From: Bacilli bacterium
Lineage (GTDB): Bacteria; Bacillota_I; Bacilli_A; RF39; UBA660
Assembly (NCBI GenBank): GCA_028693035.1
Contig: JAQUWE010000004.1
Location: 9,660 to 73,659, forward strand
Direction: 5' to 3'
DNA: 64,000 bases
Shown: positions 12,017 to 61,243 of the stretch, piece by piece
How positions within the stretch are numbered: the stretch's first letter is position 1
How the letters are laid out: every line of letters starts with the position of its first letter
Program-made: the position numbers and the translations under genes
The notes under the pieces: model-generated
The model's database searches: none
The model's input: only the letters and a program-made list of their open reading frames with translations
Told to the model about the DNA's origin: nothing

Positions 12017-12043
12017 TTAGCACTCCTTATATATGAGTGACAA
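12017..12043 (-). promoter_or_regulatory. CIRCE operator (HrcA binding site)
   Basis: TTAGCACTC-N9-GAGTGACAA, matching the consensus TTAGCACTC-N9-GAGTGCTAA at 16 of 18 positions. It lies immediately downstream of the -10 box. Confidence 0.85.
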
Positions 12044-12047
12044 TACA

Positions 12048-12076
12048 AGTATAGCATCCCTTTGTAGCATTGTCAA
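12048..12076 (-). promoter_or_regulatory. Sigma-A promoter of the hrcA operon
   Basis: On the minus strand: TTGACA, a 17-nt spacer, then TATACT, located between the two CIRCE copies. Confidence 0.6.
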
Positions 12077-12090
12077 CGGAAGAGTGCTAA
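12064..12090 (-). promoter_or_regulatory. Second, degenerate CIRCE-like element overlapping the -35 box
   Basis: gtagcattg-N9-GAGTGCTAA. The right half-site is perfect; the left half matches at 6 of 9 positions. Confidence 0.4.
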
Positions 12091-12145: not shown

Positions 12146-12168
12146 AAAAAGGGACTTATGTCCTTTTT
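12146..12168 (-). terminator. Rho-independent terminator after the pilin-like gene
   Basis: Stem aaaaagggac / gtccttttt with a ttat loop. A/T-runs flank both sides. Confidence 0.6.
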
Positions 12169-12178
12169 TTATTATAAA

Positions 12179-13543
12179 TTAAGCAGTTCTTCTCCACATA
12201 TACACAGTTACATACGGTTGTAAATTAGAGAAAGCTGTTCCAGATCCTGTTGCCCCTGTTGTAGAAGCATTTGTAGAAACTGTATGGCTATGATTTCCTG
12301 TTGTACTTGTCGTTCCACTATAGGTATGCGTGTGCGCTCCTGCACTGCTCGTTGTTCCGCTATACGCATGCGTGTGATTTCCCGCATTATCCATTCCCAT
12401 ACGAGCGCCATGTGTTGGTTGGGTGGTTCCTACAAAATCTGCATAAACACCAAATATTCCACCGGAACGGTTGCTTGGATTCCAACTCCATCCACCAGCT
12501 GATGGATTATAATTATAAACATTATGTGTATGATTACCGGCTGCGCTTGTCGTACCACTAAAGGTATGGGTATGGGCTCCTGCAGAGGAAGAAGTTCCAC
12601 TAAAGGTATGGGCATGGTTTCCAGCTGTCGAAGTACTTCCACTTAAAGCTGGTATACTATGGCTGTGACTTGGCAAGTTAGCTGCTGCTAAAGTGGTGGT
12701 AGTGCTTCCTCCTGTTTTGCCTATCGTGTTAAAGTTGCCATCAGCACTATTGATGCCTACCAAAGTTCTTCCTGTTCCATAAGCTTCCCAAACACCGCCA
12801 AATAGTATAGATGGGCTTGTACTACTCGTACTAATATAAATACTTCCAACTGGGTATGTTTCATTTAACTGATTTTTACTGATGACAGAAATATCTGCGG
12901 TATTTTTAGCCACTTGTGTCTTTAAATTGCCAATATCAACAGTATTGGTCTGGACTTGACTTTTTAAGGTTGTATTTTCTGTTTGTAGTGAAGTAATCTT
13001 AGCATCTTGGCTTTTATCTTTATTCTCAAGACTTGTATTTTTAGAGTATAAATCTTTTACATCATCTTGTAATTTTTTTACTGCTTTTGTAAGTTCTTCT
13101 CTTGTTAGAGTCGTAGAAGTTGTTGTGACAACGACGGGTGTATCTGCATCTTTATTGGCATAGTATTTTCCATTGGTTAGGTTTTCTACTTCTATAGTGC
13201 CATCATTATAGAGCAAAACTTTCCCAGCTATAGGGGCTTCCCCACTATACGTAATTTCATACCCTTCTGCTGAGACACCTTTTTTCCCTAAAGCCTCATC
13301 AAAGACAAAAGAAATAAGTCCACCATTTTCTTCAAATGTTTTATATAACTTTGTACTATTTCTCGCAAAATACACATCGGCTGCTCTTACAATTCCTTCT
13401 GTTGTTTCTTTGAAAGCATTCTTTTGTGAACTTTCTATTACTTTATACACCATTGGTACTGTTATAACAGAGACAATACCTAGTACTACAATAATGCCTA
13501 ATACTTCTATTAAGGTAAAACCTTTTGGTCTTTTATTTCTCAT
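12179..13543 (-). CDS. Prepilin-type N-terminal cleavage/methylation domain protein with a coiled coil and a phage tail-collar/tail-fibre-like C-terminus carrying HxH repeats
   Basis: MRNKRPKG|FTLIEVL followed by a hydrophobic helix (class III signal). A coiled-coil segment is present (TSLQTENTTLKSQVQ...). The C-terminus has YPVGSIYIS...LFGGVWE...LPSHSH, six GNHxHT/GAHTHT repeats, and ends NLQPYVTVYMWRRTA. AAAGGAG lies 7 nt upstream of the ATG. Confidence 0.8.
   Translation of the reverse strand: MRNKRPKGFTLIEVLGIIVVLGIVSVITVPMVYKVIESSQKNAFKETTEGIVRAADVYFARNSTKLYKTFEENGGLISFVFDEALGKKGVSAEGYEITYSGEAPIAGKVLLYNDGTIEVENLTNGKYYANKDADTPVVVTTTSTTLTREELTKAVKKLQDDVKDLYSKNTSLENKDKSQDAKITSLQTENTTLKSQVQTNTVDIGNLKTQVAKNTADISVISKNQLNETYPVGSIYISTSSTSPSILFGGVWEAYGTGRTLVGINSADGNFNTIGKTGGSTTTTLAAANLPSHSHSIPALSGSTSTAGNHAHTFSGTSSSAGAHTHTFSGTTSAAGNHTHNVYNYNPSAGGWSWNPSNRSGGIFGVYADFVGTTQPTHGARMGMDNAGNHTHAYSGTTSSAGAHTHTYSGTTSTTGNHSHTVSTNASTTGATGSGTAFSNLQPYVTVYMWRRTA
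12250..12680 (-). repeat. Coding tandem repeats (S/T-rich G-x-H-x-H units)
   Basis: Two blocks of three units, AGNHAHTFSGTSSS / AGAHTHTFSGTTSA / AGNHTHN and AGNHTHAYSGTTSS / AGAHTHTYSGTTST / TGNHSHT. The region is locally GC-enriched. Confidence 0.7.
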
Positions 13544-13623
13544 TTTTACACTCCTTTTATTCTACTTTTTTTGTACTCTCTTATATACAAAGTATACCTT
13601 TTTTTTAAAAGTTGTAAAGCATA

Positions 13624-18623: not shown

Positions 18624-19334
18624 CTAAAAAGATGACTTTTCTATTAAACTTTCTTTATTAAATGATTTGATTTCTCCTATTTTATTATATAGAACTTGTA
18701 TTTTGGTTTGGTTATATGTGGATAAATCTAAAACAATTTCTGTGATATTGCCATCTAGAGTTGTCGTAGAAATCCCTACATTTCCTTCTATAGGCACTGT
18801 TTCTTCTTTATATAAGGAAGCAAACGTAGAAATAGGTAAAAGATATGTTTTTACTATTTTTTTATCTGCATACTGGGTAGTCGCATTTAAAGTAGCTTTT
18901 TCTATATAACCCGATAATTGTTTAGGTGTAATCTTTTCAAAATCAAAGAAAAGAGGTGTACTTTCTACCATCGTAGGCGCTAAATAATAATGGCTGTTTT
19001 CTACATAATAAACGTCTCCCGTTTCCTCTACTGTAATGCTTTGTTTATTATTATATCTTTTTCCCCTTACATGCACTGTTTTAATAGGTTCGTCTGTTGT
19101 AAGTAAATATGTAATATTTGTTTGATATTCATAATTAACCAATGTATCTAAAGTGGCTTTTTTAGGAAGCTTATTTTGGTATAGTTCATCTTTATCTTTA
19201 AAATCAATAAATAAAAATATACAAGTAAAAAAGAGAAGATAAAGCCCTAGTTTCATAAGAGACTTGTACCTTGGAATGGCCCATAGCTCTTTAAGCTTTT
19301 CTATGTAAACATTCTTCTTTTTTTCTTTTTTCAT
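18624..19334 (-). CDS. Hypothetical membrane-anchored protein
   Basis: A single N-terminal TM helix followed by about 180 aa that are predicted to be extracellular. The ATG at 19334 sits 1 nt after the fmt stop. Confidence 0.5.
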   Translation of the reverse strand: MKKEKKKNVYIEKLKELWAIPRYKSLMKLGLYLLFFTCIFLFIDFKDKDELYQNKLPKKATLDTLVNYEYQTNITYLLTTDEPIKTVHVRGKRYNNKQSITVEETGDVYYVENSHYYLAPTMVESTPLFFDFEKITPKQLSGYIEKATLNATTQYADKKIVKTYLLPISTFASLYKEETVPIEGNVGISTTTLDGNITEIVLDLSTYNQTKIQVLYNKIGEIKSFNKESLIEKSSF

Positions 19335-19335
19335 C

Positions 19336-20319
19336 TTAGTCAATCACTTTTCCTAACAATTCTTCTTTTTGATGATATCCATTGATAAAGTCTACGGCTT
19401 TCATTTTTCCTTTTCCTTCTGGTTGAATTTCTTTTAAAATAATTTCTCCATTGGATACTTTCACACCAAGACCTTCTTTATAAAAGCCTGTAATTTGTCC
19501 ATCAAATTTTTCTGGAAAATAGTTGGTAGAAATTAGCACTTCCCATACTTTTACGATTTTGCCATCTAAAACACAGTAAGCACCTGGCCAGCTATTAAGA
19601 CCTCTTACTTGGTTATAAATTTCTCTTTTTGTTTTGGAAAAGTCAATTCTTTCATCTTCTCTTTTAATATTAAAAGCATATGTTACTTCACTTGTATCTT
19701 GTTTGGTTCTTGGATTGGTTCCCTCTATAATAGAAGGCAGGGTTTCTAAAAGTAAATCTCTTCCTACAATAGACAATTTATCATGTAGTGTAGAAGCGGT
19801 ATCTTCTTCTGTAATTTCTACTTCTCTTTGACTGATAATGTCACCAGCGTCCATTGCTTTGCTCATATACATAATCGTCATACCTGTTTTACGGTGTCCT
19901 TTGATAATGGCCCCATGAATAGGAGCCCCCCCTCTTAGTTTTGGTAACAAGGAAGCGTGCACATTGATGCATCCAAGTCTTGGTAACTGCAAAAGGGTAA
20001 CAGGTAAAATTTGTCCGTAAGCACAAGTAACAATTAAGTCTGGCTTCCATGCATAAATTTCTTCTTCTGCTTCTTTTATTTTTTCTGGTTGTATAACTAA
20101 AATTCTATGTTTTAAAGCAACCTCTTTGATAGGGGTTGGAGAAAGGGTTCCTTTTCTGCCTACTTTACGGTCAGGCTGCGTAACAATACCCTTTACATTA
20201 TAATTTTCTATAAGTCCTTCTAAAACAGGAACAGCAAAATCTGGAGTTCCCATAAATACTATACGTAATTCTTTTTCTACGTGGATATCTTCTACATTCA
20301 TATTATCACCTATTTTCAT
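19336..20319 (-). CDS. fmt: Methionyl-tRNA formyltransferase
   Basis: RIVFMGTPDFAVPVL, HASLLPKLRGGAPI. An alternative start exists at the ATG at 20301. Confidence 0.93.
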   Translation of the reverse strand: MKIGDNMNVEDIHVEKELRIVFMGTPDFAVPVLEGLIENYNVKGIVTQPDRKVGRKGTLSPTPIKEVALKHRILVIQPEKIKEAEEEIYAWKPDLIVTCAYGQILPVTLLQLPRLGCINVHASLLPKLRGGAPIHGAIIKGHRKTGMTIMYMSKAMDAGDIISQREVEITEEDTASTLHDKLSIVGRDLLLETLPSIIEGTNPRTKQDTSEVTYAFNIKREDERIDFSKTKREIYNQVRGLNSWPGAYCVLDGKIVKVWEVLISTNYFPEKFDGQITGFYKEGLGVKVSNGEIILKEIQPEGKGKMKAVDFINGYHQKEELLGKVID

Positions 20320-34346: not shown

Positions 34347-35324
34347 TTAAATGTTCCATTTTGGTGGATACATATAATCAATTTTTTCTTTTTTAACGCA
34401 ATATTTCTTTTTAATTTTAGTTCTATTAGACTTTAGACTAGGAACTGCCTGTCTACAATATTTATCTAATTCACAGAATATATTTTGACAATCAATAAGT
34501 TGTAAAGGTCTATTCCCAATTTTTTTAAAATCGAGATGTAATCTTTTAAATTCTTTGTCCTGATTTTCAAACATATAGAAAATAATATCTTCATTGGATT
34601 GGTTTCCCTTACTAGTAAAACACTTAGCAATTCCCCTTATTGAACCTGGACCTGCCACTGTAAACTCATCTTCTCCCCAGTTTACAACTTTACTATAATT
34701 GATATCAGTCACAAGCTGATATGCCATAAAGTTTCCTATTAAAGGATAAGACTTTATTAAAAGAAAAGCATCTTCCATATGCTTACACTTCATAATTTTA
34801 TTCTGCACCTTATCTATAACAAACATTTTTTCTAAAAGAGCCAAATGATTTTGATGCTTTCTATCGTATCCAAAAGCTTTATTAGCGCAACTTATATAAG
34901 CATCACTATATATTTTTATGCCTTCTTTTAGTGCACTTTCTAAAATGTTTGAGTAAACATTTTTATCAAAATTTTCTAAGGTAATCTCCCCTATATTTTT
35001 TTCTAATAATTCCCATGTAGATTCTTTATTAAATAGTTTAAAAAGAATAATTCTAAAAAGAATACTCTCATCAGGGTATTTTTTTCCATTGTATATGACA
35101 TTTTTAAGCAAGTATTGACTCACTCTATCGTTCACTCTATAGCTATTACAAAACTTATACTCTTGCAGTATCGGATCTTCTGTCCATGGGCCTCTTTCTC
35201 CATTATCCTTTTTTACGAAGATATTTTGTCTTTCAGCAGCAAAGTACCAATATAGATCATAAATTTCTTGTCGCTTTCTAAAATTTTCAACCACTGTACA
35301 TCTACCTTTCTTATAATTTTTCAT
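34347..35324 (-). CDS. Protein resembling the 5-hmdU DNA kinase helical / aGPT-pyrophosphorylase family of phage thymidine hypermodification (tentative)
   Basis: Motifs recalled from that family: ERQNIF...GERGPWTEDPILQEYKFCNSYRVNDRVSQ, and later GNFMAYQLVTDINYS...AGPGSIRG. No P-loop is present. The ORF itself is solid at 325 aa. Confidence 0.45.
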   Translation of the reverse strand: MKNYKKGRCTVVENFRKRQEIYDLYWYFAAERQNIFVKKDNGERGPWTEDPILQEYKFCNSYRVNDRVSQYLLKNVIYNGKKYPDESILFRIILFKLFNKESTWELLEKNIGEITLENFDKNVYSNILESALKEGIKIYSDAYISCANKAFGYDRKHQNHLALLEKMFVIDKVQNKIMKCKHMEDAFLLIKSYPLIGNFMAYQLVTDINYSKVVNWGEDEFTVAGPGSIRGIAKCFTSKGNQSNEDIIFYMFENQDKEFKRLHLDFKKIGNRPLQLIDCQNIFCELDKYCRQAVPSLKSNRTKIKKKYCVKKEKIDYMYPPKWNI

Positions 35325-35610: not shown

Positions 35611-36474
35611 ATGAACAATTACGAAAAAGCACTACAAAAAATTAAACACGACGAAAAATGTAAACCAAAAGGTATGTATTATATAGGCGCAGCAGGTCCT
35701 ACGGGTCCAACAGGTCCACCTGGACCAGCTGGAGGTCCTACGGGTCCGACAGGTCCAACCGGGCCAACGGGGCCAACCGGGCCAACCGGGCCAACGGGAC
35801 CAACTGGGCCTGGCGGTCTTCTTGGTGCAACGGGTCCAACCGGGCCAACGGGACCAACCGGACCTGACGGGCTTCTTGGTGCAACAGGACCAACCGGACC
35901 AACTGGACCTGACGGGCTTCTTGGCGCAACAGGACCAACGGGGCCAACGGGTCCAGCAGGCGTTGATGGCATTATAGGTCCAACAGGTCCAACCGGACCA
36001 ACTGGACCTGACGGGCTTCTTGGCGCAACGGGTCCAACGGGGCCAACGGGCCCAACAGGACCAGCTGCTCTTGGAGCTCTTGAAGTTCAATTGCAAACTG
36101 GTGCATTTCAGGAAATTACTGATGCTTCTGCAATAGCTTTCAACACGGTTATTACGAATAATGCACCTAATATTACTTATGATACAACAACAGGTATTTT
36201 CACAATTACTACACCCGGACTATATTATATCAACTGGTGGGTCGCTGCCGATTCAGCACCAGTGGTAAATACTATCAATTTAGCAATCGCAACATCTGCC
36301 GGTCAAAACATTCAGGCATCATCAAATATTGCTGCACTTAATTTTAGCGGAAATGCTTTATTAAATGTTACAACTGCTCCACTAACTTTCTCATTAGTCA
36401 ATCAAAGTGGCGGCTCAATATTCATCGGAGAATATCTAGCACAAGCTGATTTAACTGTTATCCAGCTTATATAA
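35611..36474 (+). CDS. Collagen-like triple-helix repeat protein with a globular C-terminal domain (BclA-like architecture)
   Basis: About 125 aa of G-X-Y triplets, mostly GPT, followed by a domain of about 135 aa rich in beta-strand-type sequence. GAAAGGAG lies 7 nt upstream of the ATG. Confidence 0.85.
35695..36066 (+). repeat. GC-rich 9-bp-periodic (GGnCCnACn) coding repeat with higher-order [14 protein letters not shown](D) units
   Basis: Read directly from the sequence. All six frames are open here, which generates the spurious antisense ORFs in the track. Confidence 0.9.
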
Positions 36475-37721: not shown

Positions 37722-37757
37722 ACTTATAAAAGTACCTATACTTTATAAGTTTTTTTA
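37722..37757. terminator. Hairpin terminator between the small ORF and the lysin gene
   Basis: acttataaaagta / tactttataagt (12 bp with one bulge) and a ccta loop, followed by a T-run. Confidence 0.65.
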
Positions 37758-38756
37758 TTTTATAACCAAAATTTGTCCTGGATAAATTACATTAGGATTA
37801 CTGCCAATCGTTTTACGATTTTTTTCATATAACGTTTTCCAACTCATTCCATATTTGGCTGCGATAGAACTTAAGTTATCTCCCTTTTGTACCTTATAAG
37901 TAACAGAACTAGATTGACTACTGCTATTTGGGATTTTTAAAATTTGTCCTACTTGTATTTTATTGGGATCAGCAATGCTATTTGCACTTGCTATTTCCTT
38001 GTAACGTGTCCCATTTCCATAAAATTTTTGGGCAATGGTCCACAAACTATCTCCCTTTTGTACTTTATATGTGACATCGCTGGGAGTTGGTGTTGGGGTA
38101 GGTGTAGGCTCTGGTTCTACACGAGGACTGTCTGTATAATGATTCAATCCTTGTGAAACAATAAGTTCATGATAATCTTTATAAGCAATGTTCATGTCGA
38201 CGTCACCCGTAATTCCATTGACCCTACCTGTACTACTATACTGCCATATTCCAAATGGTTTTTCATATGTAGGCCTACTAGCCCACTGTGCAAGCCATTT
38301 GTCATAAGAATTTAATTCTGGACTATTTAAGATGGTACGGAACCAATGTAAGTTTGCATAGATCATCGCATAATATCCGTTTTCTTCAAGTGTCTGACAA
38401 AAAGTGGTACAAATATCTGTATAGGTTTGATTAGAGGCACCACCATGTGCTTCTTTCCAACCATCTCCATCTTCCATGTCAATCACAATAGGATAAGTTG
38501 GCTTATAGCCTTTAATACTATTTAACATACCGGCTACTTCTTGTTTGGCTTCTTCTACATTTAAAGCATATGAATAGTGGTAAAAACCATAAGGAATACC
38601 ATAACGTTCACAGGCATCCGCATAGGTTCTAAACATCTTATCTTCATGATAATAGCCATACCCAGAACGTATGATTACAAAATCTACTTGTTCTTTTACT
38701 TTAGAAAAGTCTATATTTCCTTGATAATAAGAAATATCAATTCCACGTTTTTCGAT
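37755..38756 (-). CDS. GH25 muramidase with two C-terminal LysM domains and no signal peptide (endolysin-like); apparent ATC start
   Basis: The conserved GH25 N-terminus RGIDISYYQGNIDF lies upstream of the first ATG (38636), in frame. AGGAGG sits 6 nt upstream of ATC at 38756. A PTPTPTPTP linker is followed by two YKVQKGD...LysM repeats. Confidence 0.75.
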   Translation of the reverse strand: MEKRGIDISYYQGNIDFSKVKEQVDFVIIRSGYGYYHEDKMFRTYADACERYGIPYGFYHYSYALNVEEAKQEVAGMLNSIKGYKPTYPIVIDMEDGDGWKEAHGGASNQTYTDICTTFCQTLEENGYYAMIYANLHWFRTILNSPELNSYDKWLAQWASRPTYEKPFGIWQYSSTGRVNGITGDVDMNIAYKDYHELIVSQGLNHYTDSPRVEPEPTPTPTPTPSDVTYKVQKGDSLWTIAQKFYGNGTRYKEIASANSIADPNKIQVGQILKIPNSSSQSSSVTYKVQKGDNLSSIAAKYGMSWKTLYEKNRKTIGSNPNVIYPGQILVIK

Positions 38757-58193: not shown

Positions 58194-60311
58194 CTAGTGT
58201 TCCTTTAAGCAAAATGTTTCATCGCCAATATCGATTGTAAGATTTTCACCAAATGCAAGATTTCCATTGATAATATTTTCTGCAAGTAAAGTTTCAATAT
58301 GACGGGATACATATCTTTTAATAGGACGTGCACCATACCTTTCATCAAAAGCATTTTCAATGATAAATTCTCTTGCTTCTTTTGTAAGCGTAATTTTTAT
58401 TTTTTTATCTGACAAGCGCTTTTCTATATCTTGTATAATTTTGTCAAGAATACTGTAAATCACTTCTTTTGATAAAGAATGGAAAACAATGATTTCATCA
58501 ATACGATTGATAAATTCTGGTTTGAATGTATGTTTAAGTTCTTCCATTACCAAACCATGGGCACCTTCTTTATTTTCTAGGATATATTCACTTCCTAAAT
58601 TAGATGTCATAATAATAATGGTATTTTTAAAATCTACTGTTCTTCCTTGCGAATCTGTAATACGACCATCATCTAAAATTTGTAATAAAATATTAAAAAC
58701 ATCTTTATGTGCTTTTTCAATTTCATCAAATAAAACAATACTGTAGGGATTTCTTCTTACGGCTTCTGTTAATTGTCCACCTTCATCATAGCCTACATAC
58801 CCTGGAGGAGAACCTACCAATCTAGACACACTATGGGATTCCATATATTCACTCATATCAATACGAATCATGTGTCTTTCGTCATCAAATAATTCATAAG
58901 CAAGAGAACGCGCTACTTCGGTTTTACCAACTCCAGTTGGTCCTAGAAAGATAAAGGAACCGATTGGTTTGTTAGGGTCTTTAATACCTGCTCTACTTCT
59001 CATAATGGCTTCACTGACAAGTTTTAAAGCTTCCTTTTGACCTTTTACTCTTTTCTCTAAATTGTCCTCTAGATGAAGCAGTTTTTCTTTTTCTGTTCCT
59101 ACCAATTTACTTACAGGAACATGGGTCCATTTTGAAACAATTTCCGCAATGGATTCTTCATCGACTGTATCACTTAAAAGGGTGGATACATTTTCTTTTT
59201 GTAGAAGAGAGAGTTCACTTTCTAATTTTGGTAAAATACCATGTCTAATTTTAGCAGCTACATCTAAATTATAATCTGCTTCTGCTTGTTCTAATTTAAA
59301 ACGATTGTTTTCTATTTCTTCCTTTTTCTTATTGATTGTATCGTTGATTCCTTTTTCCTGTTCCCAGTCCTTACGGAATGCTGATTCTTTTTGTTTCATG
59401 GTTTCTAATTTTTGATTGATTTCTTCTAATCGTTTTTTAGAAAGCTCATCCTTTTCTTTACGAAGTGCTTGTTTTTCTATTTCAAGTCTCATAATGTCTC
59501 TTGATAAAGTATCCAATTGGGTGGGCACAGAGTCCATTTGAACTTTTATTGTAGCGCATGCTTCATCTACTAAATCAATGGCTTTATCTGGTAAAAAGCG
59601 GTCTGTAATATATCGGTCTGACAAAGTAGCTGCCGCAACTAATGCTCTATCTTTAATACTTACGCCATGGTATACTTCAAAACGTTGTTTAAGTCCACGC
59701 AAAATGGTAATGGTATCTAGGACATTGGGTTCACTAACTTGTACCTTTTGAAATCTACGTTCAAGAGCTCCATCTTTTTCAATATATTTTCTATATTCAT
59801 TTAAAGTGGTTGCACCTATTACATGAATTTCACCACGGGCTAGCATAGGCTTTAACATATTTCCTGCATCCATGGCACCCTCTAAAGCACCGGCTCCTAC
59901 AATCATGTGGATTTCATCAATAAACATGATAATATTGCCATCACTTTCTTTGACTTCTTTTAATACGGCTTTTAGACGTTCTTCAAATTCTCCACGGTAT
60001 TTAGCGCCCGCAATCAAAGAACCCATATCAAGTTCCCAAATGGTTTTTCCTTTTAAGGAATTTGGGACATCTCCTTTGACAATACGAGAAGCAAGTCCTT
60101 CTACTATAGCGGTTTTACCAACACCTGGTTCTCCAATTAAAACCGGATTGTTTTTTGTTTTTCTAGATAAAATACGCGTTATATTACGAATTTCATCATC
60201 ACGGCCAATAACAGGATCCACCTTTCCATCTTTTACACTTTGGACGATATTCCTTCCATATTTTTCTAAAACATTTTGTAAATTTTCTTCATAAGGATTT
60301 TGTCCATTCAT
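58194..60311 (-). CDS. clpB: ATP-dependent chaperone ClpB lacking the canonical N-terminal domain
   Basis: Starts just before [28 protein letters not shown]. It has two AAA+ modules ([18 protein letters not shown]) and a coiled-coil middle domain. AAAGGAGG lies 7 nt upstream of the ATG at 60311, giving about 705 aa. Confidence 0.9.
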
Positions 60312-60391
60312 AAACATGCCTCCTTTAATTATATTATATGTTGGTCTTTTTCTACCAAACACATACAGTATAACGCAAAAACTAGCACTTG

Positions 60392-61243
60392 TCAATAACG
60401 AGTGCTAGTTTGTTTCTTTTGAAATTTCTTTTGCATCATTTCTAATGTACCTCTTTGTGACACAATTTTATTTTGCAAATAATATAATTGATCATCTATC
60501 ATATTCAAAACATAATTAAACCACTTATTCCATGATTCAACAGTAGTATTACAATTTTTTAAATCAATATCGTTTTGATATTGATAATAGTTGCCCCTAG
60601 TTAATCTATAATTATTCGATAAATTCAATATTGGATATTGAAATGAAATACGCAACCTGTTGCTATATAGTTCTGTCATTTTTTGTTCTTGCAAAATACG
60701 AGAAATTCTTCCATTACCATCATTAAATGGATGGATATTTGAAAAAAGGACATGAATTATGGCTCCTTTTATAAATGGGTGTTGAAAGTCTTTCCTATTA
60801 TAAAAGTCAACAAATTCTTTCATATATTCTTCGATTTGTTTTTCCTCTATTGCAACAAATCTTGCGCTGTCAATCGTACATCCTGGTTTACCAATCCAAG
60901 CTGGCGAATTTCTATATTGTCCGGCTTTGACTTTATATTTATAATTTTCATCAATAATTATTTTTTGAAGTCCCATCAACATCTTTTCATCAATTTCTGT
61001 TTTTTTTGAAAAAACATTTTCATAATAATATAATAATTCAGCAGGATACGAAGCCTTTTCTAAATTTCCACTATCCACCATTCTTCTAAAATAACAATCT
61101 AATAAAAACAAATTCATTGTAGTATTTCCATACTTCAGAATACTATTTATATAGTTTAAACATTCTTTTTCTGTATCCACTAAATGTTCTTGCACAAAAT
61201 TTGTTAAAGGAATGGCATCAATGTATTTTGGTAACTTACTCAT
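60392..61243 (-). CDS. Fic family protein (AMPylase-type motif)
   Basis: [12 protein letters not shown] matches HxFx(D/E)GNGRxxR. AAGGAGA lies upstream of the ATG. Confidence 0.85.

Follow-up and report, generated by a model that had tools for sequence, protein, structure and literature searches.

A prepilin-type protein with a phage tail-fibre-like head and a hypervariable tip from a Bacilli bacterium

What could a bacterium do with a protein that begins like a type IV pilin and ends like a phage tail fibre? The question is raised by a solitary chromosomal gene in a 64,000-nucleotide stretch of contig JAQUWE010000004.1 (positions 9,660 to 73,659) of a Bacilli bacterium, assembly GCA_028693035.1; this whole stretch is referred to here as the window. 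The gene encodes a protein of 454 residues (Table 1) that carries the pilin-type domain N_methyl and the phage-type domains Gp10_C and Phage_fiber in a single chain, the kind of combination to which the term "modular pilin" applies. We propose that the protein is a modular minor (that is, low-abundance) type IV pilin, whose effector is the domesticated distal end of a phage tail fibre, and we put the probability of this reading at roughly 0.6.

The N-terminus of the protein consists of MRNKRPKG followed by FTLIEVLGIIVVLGIVSVITVP, and it has the makeup of a class III signal, with a short basic leader ending in Gly, then Phe at position +1 and Glu at +5. The Pfam family N_methyl matches residues 4–28 with 24.1 bits, compared to a gathering cutoff of 21.2. 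In NCBIfam, the first ~50 residues match the N-termini of GspG, PilA and ComGC with scores far under the full-length cutoffs, as expected when the helix is all that is shared, and several pilins match the N-terminal helix in a sequence search of the PDB. Residues G8, F9, T10, L11, E13 and P30 (Gly-1, Phe1, Thr2, Leu3, Glu5 and Pro22 of the mature protein) are invariant across 32 prepilin-bearing members of the protein family described below, which are 33–80% identical. Among close homologs Gly14 (G22) is conserved as well, and the conservation of the leader (residues 1–8) is only 22%. Glu5 and Pro22 are features of filament-forming pilins (T4a, Com) and matter for filament assembly rather than for anchoring. 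A plain membrane anchor would have no reason to keep such residues, and their invariance speaks for a pilin role of the N-terminus rather than for generic anchoring. The AlphaFold2 (AF2) model of the isolated pilin module, with a mean predicted local distance difference test score (pLDDT) of 86.8 and a predicted template modelling score of 0.72, has a helix at residues 11–72 followed by six strands, which is consistent with the "lollipop" topology of pilins.

The pilin module gives way to the phage-fibre module at a Thr-rich linker, where the AF2 pLDDT falls to 74 and near which the matches to tail-fibre profiles of the PHROG collection start (at residues ~122–143). These matches extend over residues ~122–454, with E values from 1e-20 down to 7e-31. 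The stalk that follows has ~85 residues in one unbroken heptad register from residue ~145 to residue ~232; the power of its hydrophobicity signal is 28 at a period of 3.5–3.6 and at most 7 at other periods, and AF2 places helices at residues 148–199 and 204–229. A continuous heptad stalk of this kind is compatible with a homotrimer. Beyond the stalk, the Pfam family Gp10_C (PF21939) matches with 94.5 bits (cutoff 27) in two stretches that correspond to both halves of the domain, and the HxH repeat family Phage_fiber (PF03335) matches with 22.6 bits (cutoff 20). There are GxHxH units at residues 308, 322 and 336 and again at 388, 402 and 416, with an exact period of 14 residues, and the motif LPSHSH at residues 291–295 provides a seventh HxH per chain. 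H293, H295, P443 and Y448 are invariant in 58 sequences. The sequence search of the PDB aligned the C-terminal domain of T4 gp10 (2fkk, 3.9e-5) at both ends of the head and the tip of T4 gp37 (2xgf, E 0.009) at residues 271–431. The full-length AF2 monomer has a mean pLDDT of 72, with values above 90 at residues 11–140 and a long helix at residues 148–229. When this low-confidence monomer was used as a Foldseek query, T4 gp10 was recovered with probabilities of 0.97 (2fl8) and 0.91 (2fkk) at E values of 0.015–0.04, and 14 phage baseplate or tail-fibre models in BFVD were matched at E ≤ 1e-3, the best at 1e-8.

An earlier reading of the locus, made from the letters alone and called here the sequence-only reading, had described a class III signal with a hydrophobic helix, a pilin-sized region, a Thr-rich linker with a heptad-like coiled coil, and a phage-type head bearing six G-x-H-x-H units. 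Profile, structure-prediction and comparative evidence bear out this order of domains, and the profile check suggested for the two ends of the protein places N_methyl, Gp10_C and Phage_fiber all above their gathering cutoffs. The assignment of the head to the receptor-binding or tail-collar type also stands, with the Gp10_C, PHROG, gp10 and gp37 matches behind it, but the two families named for it do not: Collar PF07484 and Phage_fiber_2 PF03406 are absent from the Pfam matches up to E = 1.

The closest architectural parallel to the head is found in the long tail fibre of phage T4. In gp37, the D10 collar consists of residues 811–881 and 1010–1026, its fold is common to regions of gp10, gp11 and gp12, and the needle inserted in D10 carries seven His-bound irons and the receptor-binding tip (PMC6957217). 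In our protein, as in gp37 (D10 collar and D11 needle, 2XGF), the collar is split by ascending and descending HxH strands with the tip between them, and seven HxH motifs per chain, for which metal binding is predicted, compare with the seven iron sites of gp37. The needle differs from that of gp37 in being much shorter (3+3 units), in sitting on a pilin rather than on a fibre shaft, and in being encoded by a cellular chromosomal gene.

The sequence-only reading regarded the gene as an orphan. A search of a collection of 5.8 billion proteins does not support that view, as it returned 1,614 matches, many of them already annotated with PF07963 and PF21939. We counted the classes of N-terminus among the best 120 of these matches. 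A canonical prepilin start (G/F-T-L-[IV]-E, with cleavage at the slash) is present in 32, and a further 19 begin with "MGVIALITVP...", which is the same pilin helix annotated from a start codon too far downstream, so that the same prepilin start is found in at least 51 of the 120. Another 41 have a Sec signal, a transmembrane (TM) anchor or InlB B-repeats, and the remaining 28 have no hydrophobic N-terminus and include proteins resembling true phage fibres. Dozens of metagenomic proteins, all from uncultured bacteria of the Bacilli or Mycoplasmatota type, have this fusion, and some genomes hold three or four paralogs. Among the best 80 loci in representative genomes of GTDB no complete fusion was found, despite many relatives of the pilin module and some heads. 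The 19 internal-Met starts lie inside the alpha1 helix and hide the prepilin signal from automated annotation; gene starts are doubtful in many members (entries of the type of P0003, P0005, P0010, P0022, P0028 and P0030), and some members have long leaders of the form "MLTNSN.GGG.LE...", probably the translated Shine-Dalgarno region.

The genomic positions of the family members are equally informative. The homolog P0003, 71% identical to our protein, lies on a 234-kb contig directly after murF-mraY, which is the position of the gene in the window, and the flanking proteins of that contig are 77–94% identical to those of the window. Behind P0003 comes a tandem duplicate whose pilin module is almost the same and whose stalk differs, and this contig bears two more paralogs, P0006 and P0008, in other housekeeping neighbourhoods. 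P0002 and P0004 occupy a common second locus after a TetR-ABC2 pair, while P0015 and P0027 come after tuf and recA, respectively, and P0016 has dinB and an ABC transporter as its two neighbours. Neither phage genes nor pilus machinery flank any of the 8 family members examined. These positions show a stable chromosomal multigene family of solitary genes.

To characterize the N-terminal part separately, an exhaustive HMMER search was performed with residues 1–146 alone. At E ≤ 1e-3 it yielded 7,847 representatives, of which 301 remain when the threshold is set to 1e-10; in these the matches cover the whole module and the protein lengths range from 124 to 846 residues. Of 145 additional relatives inspected, all 145 have the prepilin motif and 20 have a Gp10_C-type head. 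A Pfam census of 108 of these 145 found N_methyl in 106, and the commonest grafted module was Gp10_C (19 of 108), followed by the Flg_new List-Bact repeat (6), ALK_LTK_GRD (4), and DUF285, Laminin_G_3 and Fib_succ_major (3 each), with Ig-like, fn3, LRR/BspA, RCC1 and other modules in 1–2 proteins each. The same pilin module also occurs as stand-alone pilins of 124–150 residues. The pilin module is thus a carrier, which is used alone or fused to varied adhesin-type modules.

In the GTDB scan, relatives of the module among the best 80 loci come almost entirely from metagenome-assembled genomes (MAGs) of uncultured Bacilli, "Tenericutes"/Mycoplasmatota and Erysipelotrichaceae, in which large prepilin genes (300–2,674 residues) are numerous and often stand in tandem arrays. 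At locus L078 (1291–12052), and likewise at L042, L081 and L052, tandem arrays of up to five prepilin-type genes of ~685 residues were found in MAGs of uncultured Bacilli; such arrays represent an extensive proliferation of big pilins in these lineages that is so far undescribed. Two neighbours of paralogs deserve mention. Immediately upstream of P0004 (L170, 7224–9794) lies a gene for an 856-residue protein with ALK_LTK_GRD, F5/8-type-C and DUF6273 domains, and since 4 of 108 relatives have ALK_LTK_GRD on the carrier pilin as well, modules appear to be common to pilin-borne and other surface proteins. At L002 (6868–11416, also at the end of L005), the gene for a 123-residue N_methyl pilin with the same module is followed first by that for an 849-residue glycosyltransferase of the YfhO family and then by paralog P0006. 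The protein from the window is very rich in Thr and Ser (66 T and 49 S among 454 residues), and this composition together with the glycosyltransferase gene makes O-glycosylation of the family pilins worth considering.

Sequence divergence within the family is strongly uneven along the chain. Among the five closest homologs, the mean pairwise identity is 88% in alpha1-N, 83% in the globular part of the pilin and 89% in each half of the head core, compared with 62–69% in the HxH strands, 56% in the stalk, where indels are heptad-sized (7 residues), and 15% in the tip insert, which is essentially unalignable. The pilin module of P0001 is 96% identical to that of P0002, whereas its tip is 17% identical to the tip of P0002 and 60% identical to that of the positional ortholog P0003, the only protein in which the tip insert recurs. 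P0003 and P0004 are 95–97% identical in the pilin module and head core and 11% identical in the tip. Two courses of events would fit these comparisons: the chassis could have been homogenised among paralogs in one genome, or the tips could have been swapped as cassettes. In both cases recombination has taken place, as the disagreement between the tip and chassis phylogenies shows, with diversification centred on the tip, which is the behaviour expected of a receptor-binding end. Neither blastn nor tblastn detected silent tip cassettes elsewhere in the window.

These results lead us to suggest how the protein might work as a minor pilin. It would be exported, after which a prepilin peptidase would remove the 8-residue leader behind Gly8, and the hydrophobic alpha1-N would keep the protein in the membrane. 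Three chains would trimerise through the coiled coil and the head, as they do in phage fibres, and metal ions bound by the HxH motifs along the three-fold axis would stiffen the needle. The trimer would then be displayed at the tip of a type IV filament, in the manner of the homotrimeric initiator pilins CofB and TcpB, with the variable tip binding a ligand on some surface; the most plausible candidates are glycans or surface proteins of another cell, host mucus and particulate substrates. Paralogs or strains with the same chassis and a replaced tip would amount to a repertoire of binding specificities. CofB (from the CFA/III pilus of enterotoxigenic Escherichia coli) and TcpB (from the toxin-coregulated pilus of Vibrio cholerae) are large minor pilins with a C-terminal homotrimer that is proposed to sit at the pilus tip and to bind ligands or adaptors (PMC8179133). 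They provide a mechanistic precedent for three pilin modules beneath one trimeric head, a likeness of function and architecture only; neither was retrieved with our protein by the PDB sequence search or by Foldseek, and they differ from it in being type IVb pilins of diderm bacteria with beta-repeat or beta-sandwich domains and genes inside pilus operons.

Several observations weigh against the assignment to a type IV filament. The examined fusion genes are scattered outside pilus operons, with no pilus machinery within 10 kb, and no T2SSE, T2SSF or Peptidase_A24 domain was found among the scanned open reading frames (ORFs) of the 64-kb window. The one-start helix of a pilus may not easily accommodate a rigid obligate trimer and its three alpha1 helices. 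Foldseek comparison of the isolated pilin module with the PDB gave no significant pilin match (FimU at E ~3, with a TM score of ~0.23), probably because of the long free alpha1 helix and the N-terminal truncation of pilins in the PDB, and the pilin fold is assigned from the topology of the predicted structure and from sequence matches to alpha1. The AF2 monomer has low confidence in the head (pLDDT 50–85) and in the needle and tip (<50); the low values of needle and tip are expected, as the fold depends on trimer formation and the model is monomeric. Trimerisation, metal binding and ligand binding are themselves attributed to the protein by analogy with its phage homologs.

Type IV filament machinery does occur in related MAGs. 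At L082, genes for PilC (with two T2SSF domains), PilD (A24_N_bact and Peptidase_A24) and a 121-residue pilin lie immediately upstream of mraZ-rsmH. L075 and L077 contain Tad-like sets with a ParA/TadZ-like ATPase, a T2SSE ATPase of ~440 residues and two single-domain T2SSF proteins, and the operon at L075 additionally encodes TadE-like proteins and an N_methyl pilin. When the PilD of L082 was used as a query, 5,789 homologs were obtained, and none of the best 120 could be matched to a contig that bears the fusion; we regard this outcome as uninformative rather than negative. Two details of these loci are of separate interest. The Tad-like operons (L075, 79–7164; L077, 14187–18759) are paired with an N_methyl pilin of the FTLIE type instead of the Flp type, an unusual pairing, and the cluster at L082 (6305–10363, directly upstream of mraZ-rsmH-ftsL) has between pilD and the pilin gene a gene for a 478-residue polytopic membrane protein with no Pfam match, which could be a pilin glycosylation or ligase-type enzyme.

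It is possible, although we consider it rather unlikely, that the protein never enters a filament and is an unpolymerised, membrane-anchored surface fibre, in which the class III signal serves only for export and anchoring and the ~12-nm coiled coil of the trimer pushes the head through the wall. Some archaeal surface proteins carry class III signals and offer a comparable case. The solitary, scattered genes that never lie beside pilus machinery agree with this alternative, a trimer could be held firmly in the membrane by its three alpha1 helices, and the fact that 41 of 120 homologs display the same head by means of a plain Sec signal, a TM anchor or InlB-type repeats implies that a pilus is dispensable for the module. 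Such Sec- or TM-anchored Gp10_C proteins (for example P0036, P0041 and P0088) are cellular, have the same coiled coil, head and HxH repeats, are 40–50% identical to our protein and occur as several paralogs per contig; they differ from it in being held by signal peptides, TM helices or InlB B-repeats, without a prepilin signal. What speaks for the minor pilin instead is the invariance of Gly-1, Phe+1, Glu+5 and Pro+22, of which Glu+5 and Pro+22 matter for filament assembly, and the existence of the identical module as stand-alone pilins of 124–150 residues, which are sensible only as filament subunits.

Comparison with viral sequences separates the origin of the head from that of the fusion. 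In 78 of the best 80 IMG/VR loci the match is confined to residues ~120–454, with 35–39% identity of the viral heads to the head of our protein over its full length. Two viral contigs, L089 and L090, seemed to match residues 10–454; the match in L089 turned out to span two adjacent ordinary phage ORFs. None of the 92 head-bearing ORFs in the viral loci, L089 and L090 included, has a prepilin or any other hydrophobic N-terminus. The head belongs to phages, and the fusion does not.

The homology to real phage-fibre heads over the whole head invites a different explanation, namely that the protein is a mask or decoy whose head blocks the adsorption of phages with the same head, either by attaching to the wall polymer of its own cell or by competing with their fibres (equivalently, it could simply bind the cell's own wall). 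A hypervariable tip would suit the arms race implied by such a role. We nevertheless regard it as improbable: no defence genes lie near the gene, PADLOC defence models gave 0 families at E ≤ 0.01, the tip cassette is absent from the viral ORFs compared, and the carrier pilin is also fused to common adhesin modules (lectin, Ig-like, LRR), an indication of a general role in adhesion. The remaining alternative, that the gene is the fibre gene of a decayed prophage tail module with a prepilin-like N-terminus by chance, can draw on the strong tail-fibre profile matches and on phage-like genes 21–25 kb away (a GH25-LysM lysin, a 5-hmdU kinase homolog and a collagen/C1q fibre), but it is effectively excluded, since the same position after murF-mraY is filled in the P0003 genome, neither this gene nor any of 8 other family loci has a phage gene within 10 kb, the prepilin signal is invariant in 32 members and appears in 0 of 92 viral head ORFs, and the distant phage-like genes sit amid housekeeping genes such as frr. 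A prophage remnant was the outcome that the sequence-only reading had itself named as fatal to its interpretation, and the syntenic ortholog P0003 and the phage-free flanks at 8 loci speak against it.

The Pfam model of Gp10_C is newer than the 2021 catalogue of modular pilins, which would account for the family's absence from it. That catalogue describes >1,200 proteins with 264 architectures in InterPro, defined by an N-terminal IPR012902/N_methyl module and a further domain with no specific link to type IV pili; its dataset S1 contains no Gp10_C, but lists the peptidase S74 tail-spike chaperone (IPR012902-IPR030392) among the frequent architectures and one protein with FN3 and three tail-collar domains (IPR012902-FN3-3x IPR011083) (Raynaud et al. 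2021; PMC8179133). Phage fibre or spike modules have therefore been grafted on pilins before, although these involve other phage domains, are listed as architectures without analysis and, in the case of the collar, concern a single protein. The Streptococcus sanguinis pilins PilB (vWA) and PilC (lectin) likewise have a class III signal, a small pilin module and a C-terminal graft, with predicted ligand binding at the tip (PMC8179133), and the Laminin_G_3 lectin-type module of PilC is also present on our carrier family (3 of 108). Our protein differs from PilB and PilC in its graft, a coiled coil with a Gp10_C head and an HxH needle that is expected to be an obligate trimer, in the ~85-residue coiled coil that takes the place of a short loop, and in the location of its gene outside a pilus locus. 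The small pilins described from TANB77 (PMC11680825) are unrelated to it.

The sequence-only reading considered the surface-display architecture unusual. The phage-fibre module on a pilin is real, but the principle of display has precedents among modular pilins; the design principle is already published, and automated pipelines already tag such proteins with PF07963 and PF21939. Our literature search found no paper that describes a Gp10_C-pilin fusion. What is new is the transfer of a coiled coil, collar and HxH needle module from phage receptor-binding proteins to a pilin, the finding that no other module is as frequent as this one in a large carrier-pilin family of uncultured Bacilli-type bacteria, and the multi-paralog organisation, the cassette-like behaviour of the tip and the obligately trimeric pilin that is implied.

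If our interpretation is true, bacteria re-use the business end of phage tail fibres as a pilus- or surface-borne adhesin, two toolkits (phage receptor-binding proteins and type IV filaments) are joined, and the idea of the modular pilin extends to an obligately trimeric, metal-stiffened module with a swappable tip. A large undescribed repertoire of big modular prepilins exists in uncultured Bacilli or Mycoplasmatota-type lineages of gut, rumen and other metagenomes. The conserved chassis with its variable tip of 44 residues is also a natural scaffold for finding or engineering binding specificities. More speculatively, and with considerable doubt on our part, small-genome uncultured bacteria of these groups could use phage tips as interchangeable, metal-stiffened homotrimeric filament caps, with several near-identical chassis and different tips per genome providing programmable specificities at the pilus tip. 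In that scenario the chassis may be kept alike by gene conversion or recent duplication, and the specificities would possibly be aimed at neighbouring bacteria, for attachment or targeted DNA uptake, rather than at host tissue.

Table 1. Positions in the window of the prepilin gene, its coding segments and the adjacent signals, in the direction of transcription.
Feature	Position	Strand	Basis
Promoter-like TTTACA-16-TATACT, 10/12 matches, between mraY stop and gene	13591..13618	-	Consensus scan only
Shine-Dalgarno AAAGGAG, 7 nt 5' of ATG	13551..13557	-	Read directly from sequence
Whole gene, 454-residue modular prepilin with phage-fibre C-terminal module	12179..13543	-	ORF list; Pfam N_methyl + Gp10_C + Phage_fiber
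Leader peptide MRNKRPKG, residues 1-8, predicted prepilin-peptidase cleavage after Gly8	13520..13543	-	
Hydrophobic alpha1-N, residues 9-40 (mature Phe1, Glu5)	13424..13519	-	Pfam N_methyl; NCBIfam; invariant columns
Globular part of pilin module, residues 41-138: rest of alpha1 and six-strand beta-sheet	13130..13423	-	AF2 pLDDT >90
Thr-rich linker VVTTTSTT, residues 139-146, junction of pilin module and phage-fibre module	13106..13129	-	PHROG match starts; pLDDT dip
Coiled-coil stalk, residues 147-226, ~12 heptads, ~12 nm	12866..13105	-	Heptad/periodicity analysis; AF2 helices
Head N-terminal half (Gp10_C/collar-type), residues 227-299, motifs YPVGSIY, GGxWE, LPSHSH	12647..12865	-	
Ascending needle strand, residues 300-341, three GxHxH units, 14-residue period	12521..12646	-	Pfam Phage_fiber; motifs; gp37 tip match
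Hypervariable tip insert, residues 342-385 (44 residues), predicted ligand-binding end	12389..12520	-	Identity drop; phylogenetic incongruence
Descending needle strand, residues 386-422, three GxHxH units	12278..12388	-	Motif positions; Pfam Phage_fiber
Head C-terminal half, residues 423-454, ending NLQPYVTVYMWRRTA	12182..12277	-	Aligns to T4 gp10 C-terminus
Stop codon	12179-12181	-	End of the 454-residue gene
Terminator-like hairpin GGAC-AUAA-GUCC with A/U extension, then U-run	12146..12170	-	RNA fold

In the window, which has a G+C content of 30%, the two neighbours of the gene are the groups dnaK-grpE-hrcA and mraY-murF, and the remaining genes serve housekeeping and envelope biosynthesis (Mur ligases, priA, fmt, SUF, SRP54, a Clp ATPase and a glycosyltransferase/ABC cluster). 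A scan for prepilin motifs gave this gene as the sole match in the window, and a scan of all window ORFs for GxGDxK and multi-TM motifs gave none; no gp38/gp57A-type chaperone gene was found near the gene. The solitary position between the hrcA promoter and mraY, the lack of pilus-assembly and phage genes nearby, and the gene's own Shine-Dalgarno sequence and terminator had all been proposed from the letters, and all hold in the window. The hairpin has a folding energy of -11.9 kcal/mol (z = -4.3) and is followed by the U-run, though the consensus terminator scan did not flag it. The promoter-like element is weak evidence, as such sites are no commoner around it than in shuffled sequence.

Several other features of the window were noted in passing. 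A conserved 239-residue protein without a Pfam match is encoded between fmt and a Mur ligase gene in this genome and a related one (window 18624–19343, minus strand; L001, 4241–4960). A second trimeric fibre-like protein of 287 residues (35611–36474, plus strand) has GPT-type collagen repeats and a C1q-like head, resembles BclA and lacks a signal peptide; it matches tail-fibre PHROGs at 1e-35, yet its neighbours are housekeeping genes. On the minus strand, 34347–35324 encodes a strong homolog of the helical domain of phage 5-hmdU DNA kinase (HMUDK_hel, 1.8e-105), and 37755–38636 encodes an endolysin-like protein with GH25 and 2xLysM. No further prophage genes surround these two, which could be domesticated or left-over phage genes.

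On the hrcA side, a TTGACA-17-TATACT promoter lies between two operators that resemble the controlling inverted repeat of chaperone expression (CIRCE). Three such CIRCE-like inverted repeats (TTAGCACTC-N9-GAGTGCTAA, with 2–3 mismatches) are present in the window, at 12017–12043, 12064–12090 and 60382–60408, compared to a chance expectation of 0.02. The hrcA promoter lies between the first two, whereas the third coincides in part with the beginning of the gene for a Clp-family AAA+ ATPase (58194–60395), and this overlap suggests that the ATPase gene may also be under the control of HrcA.

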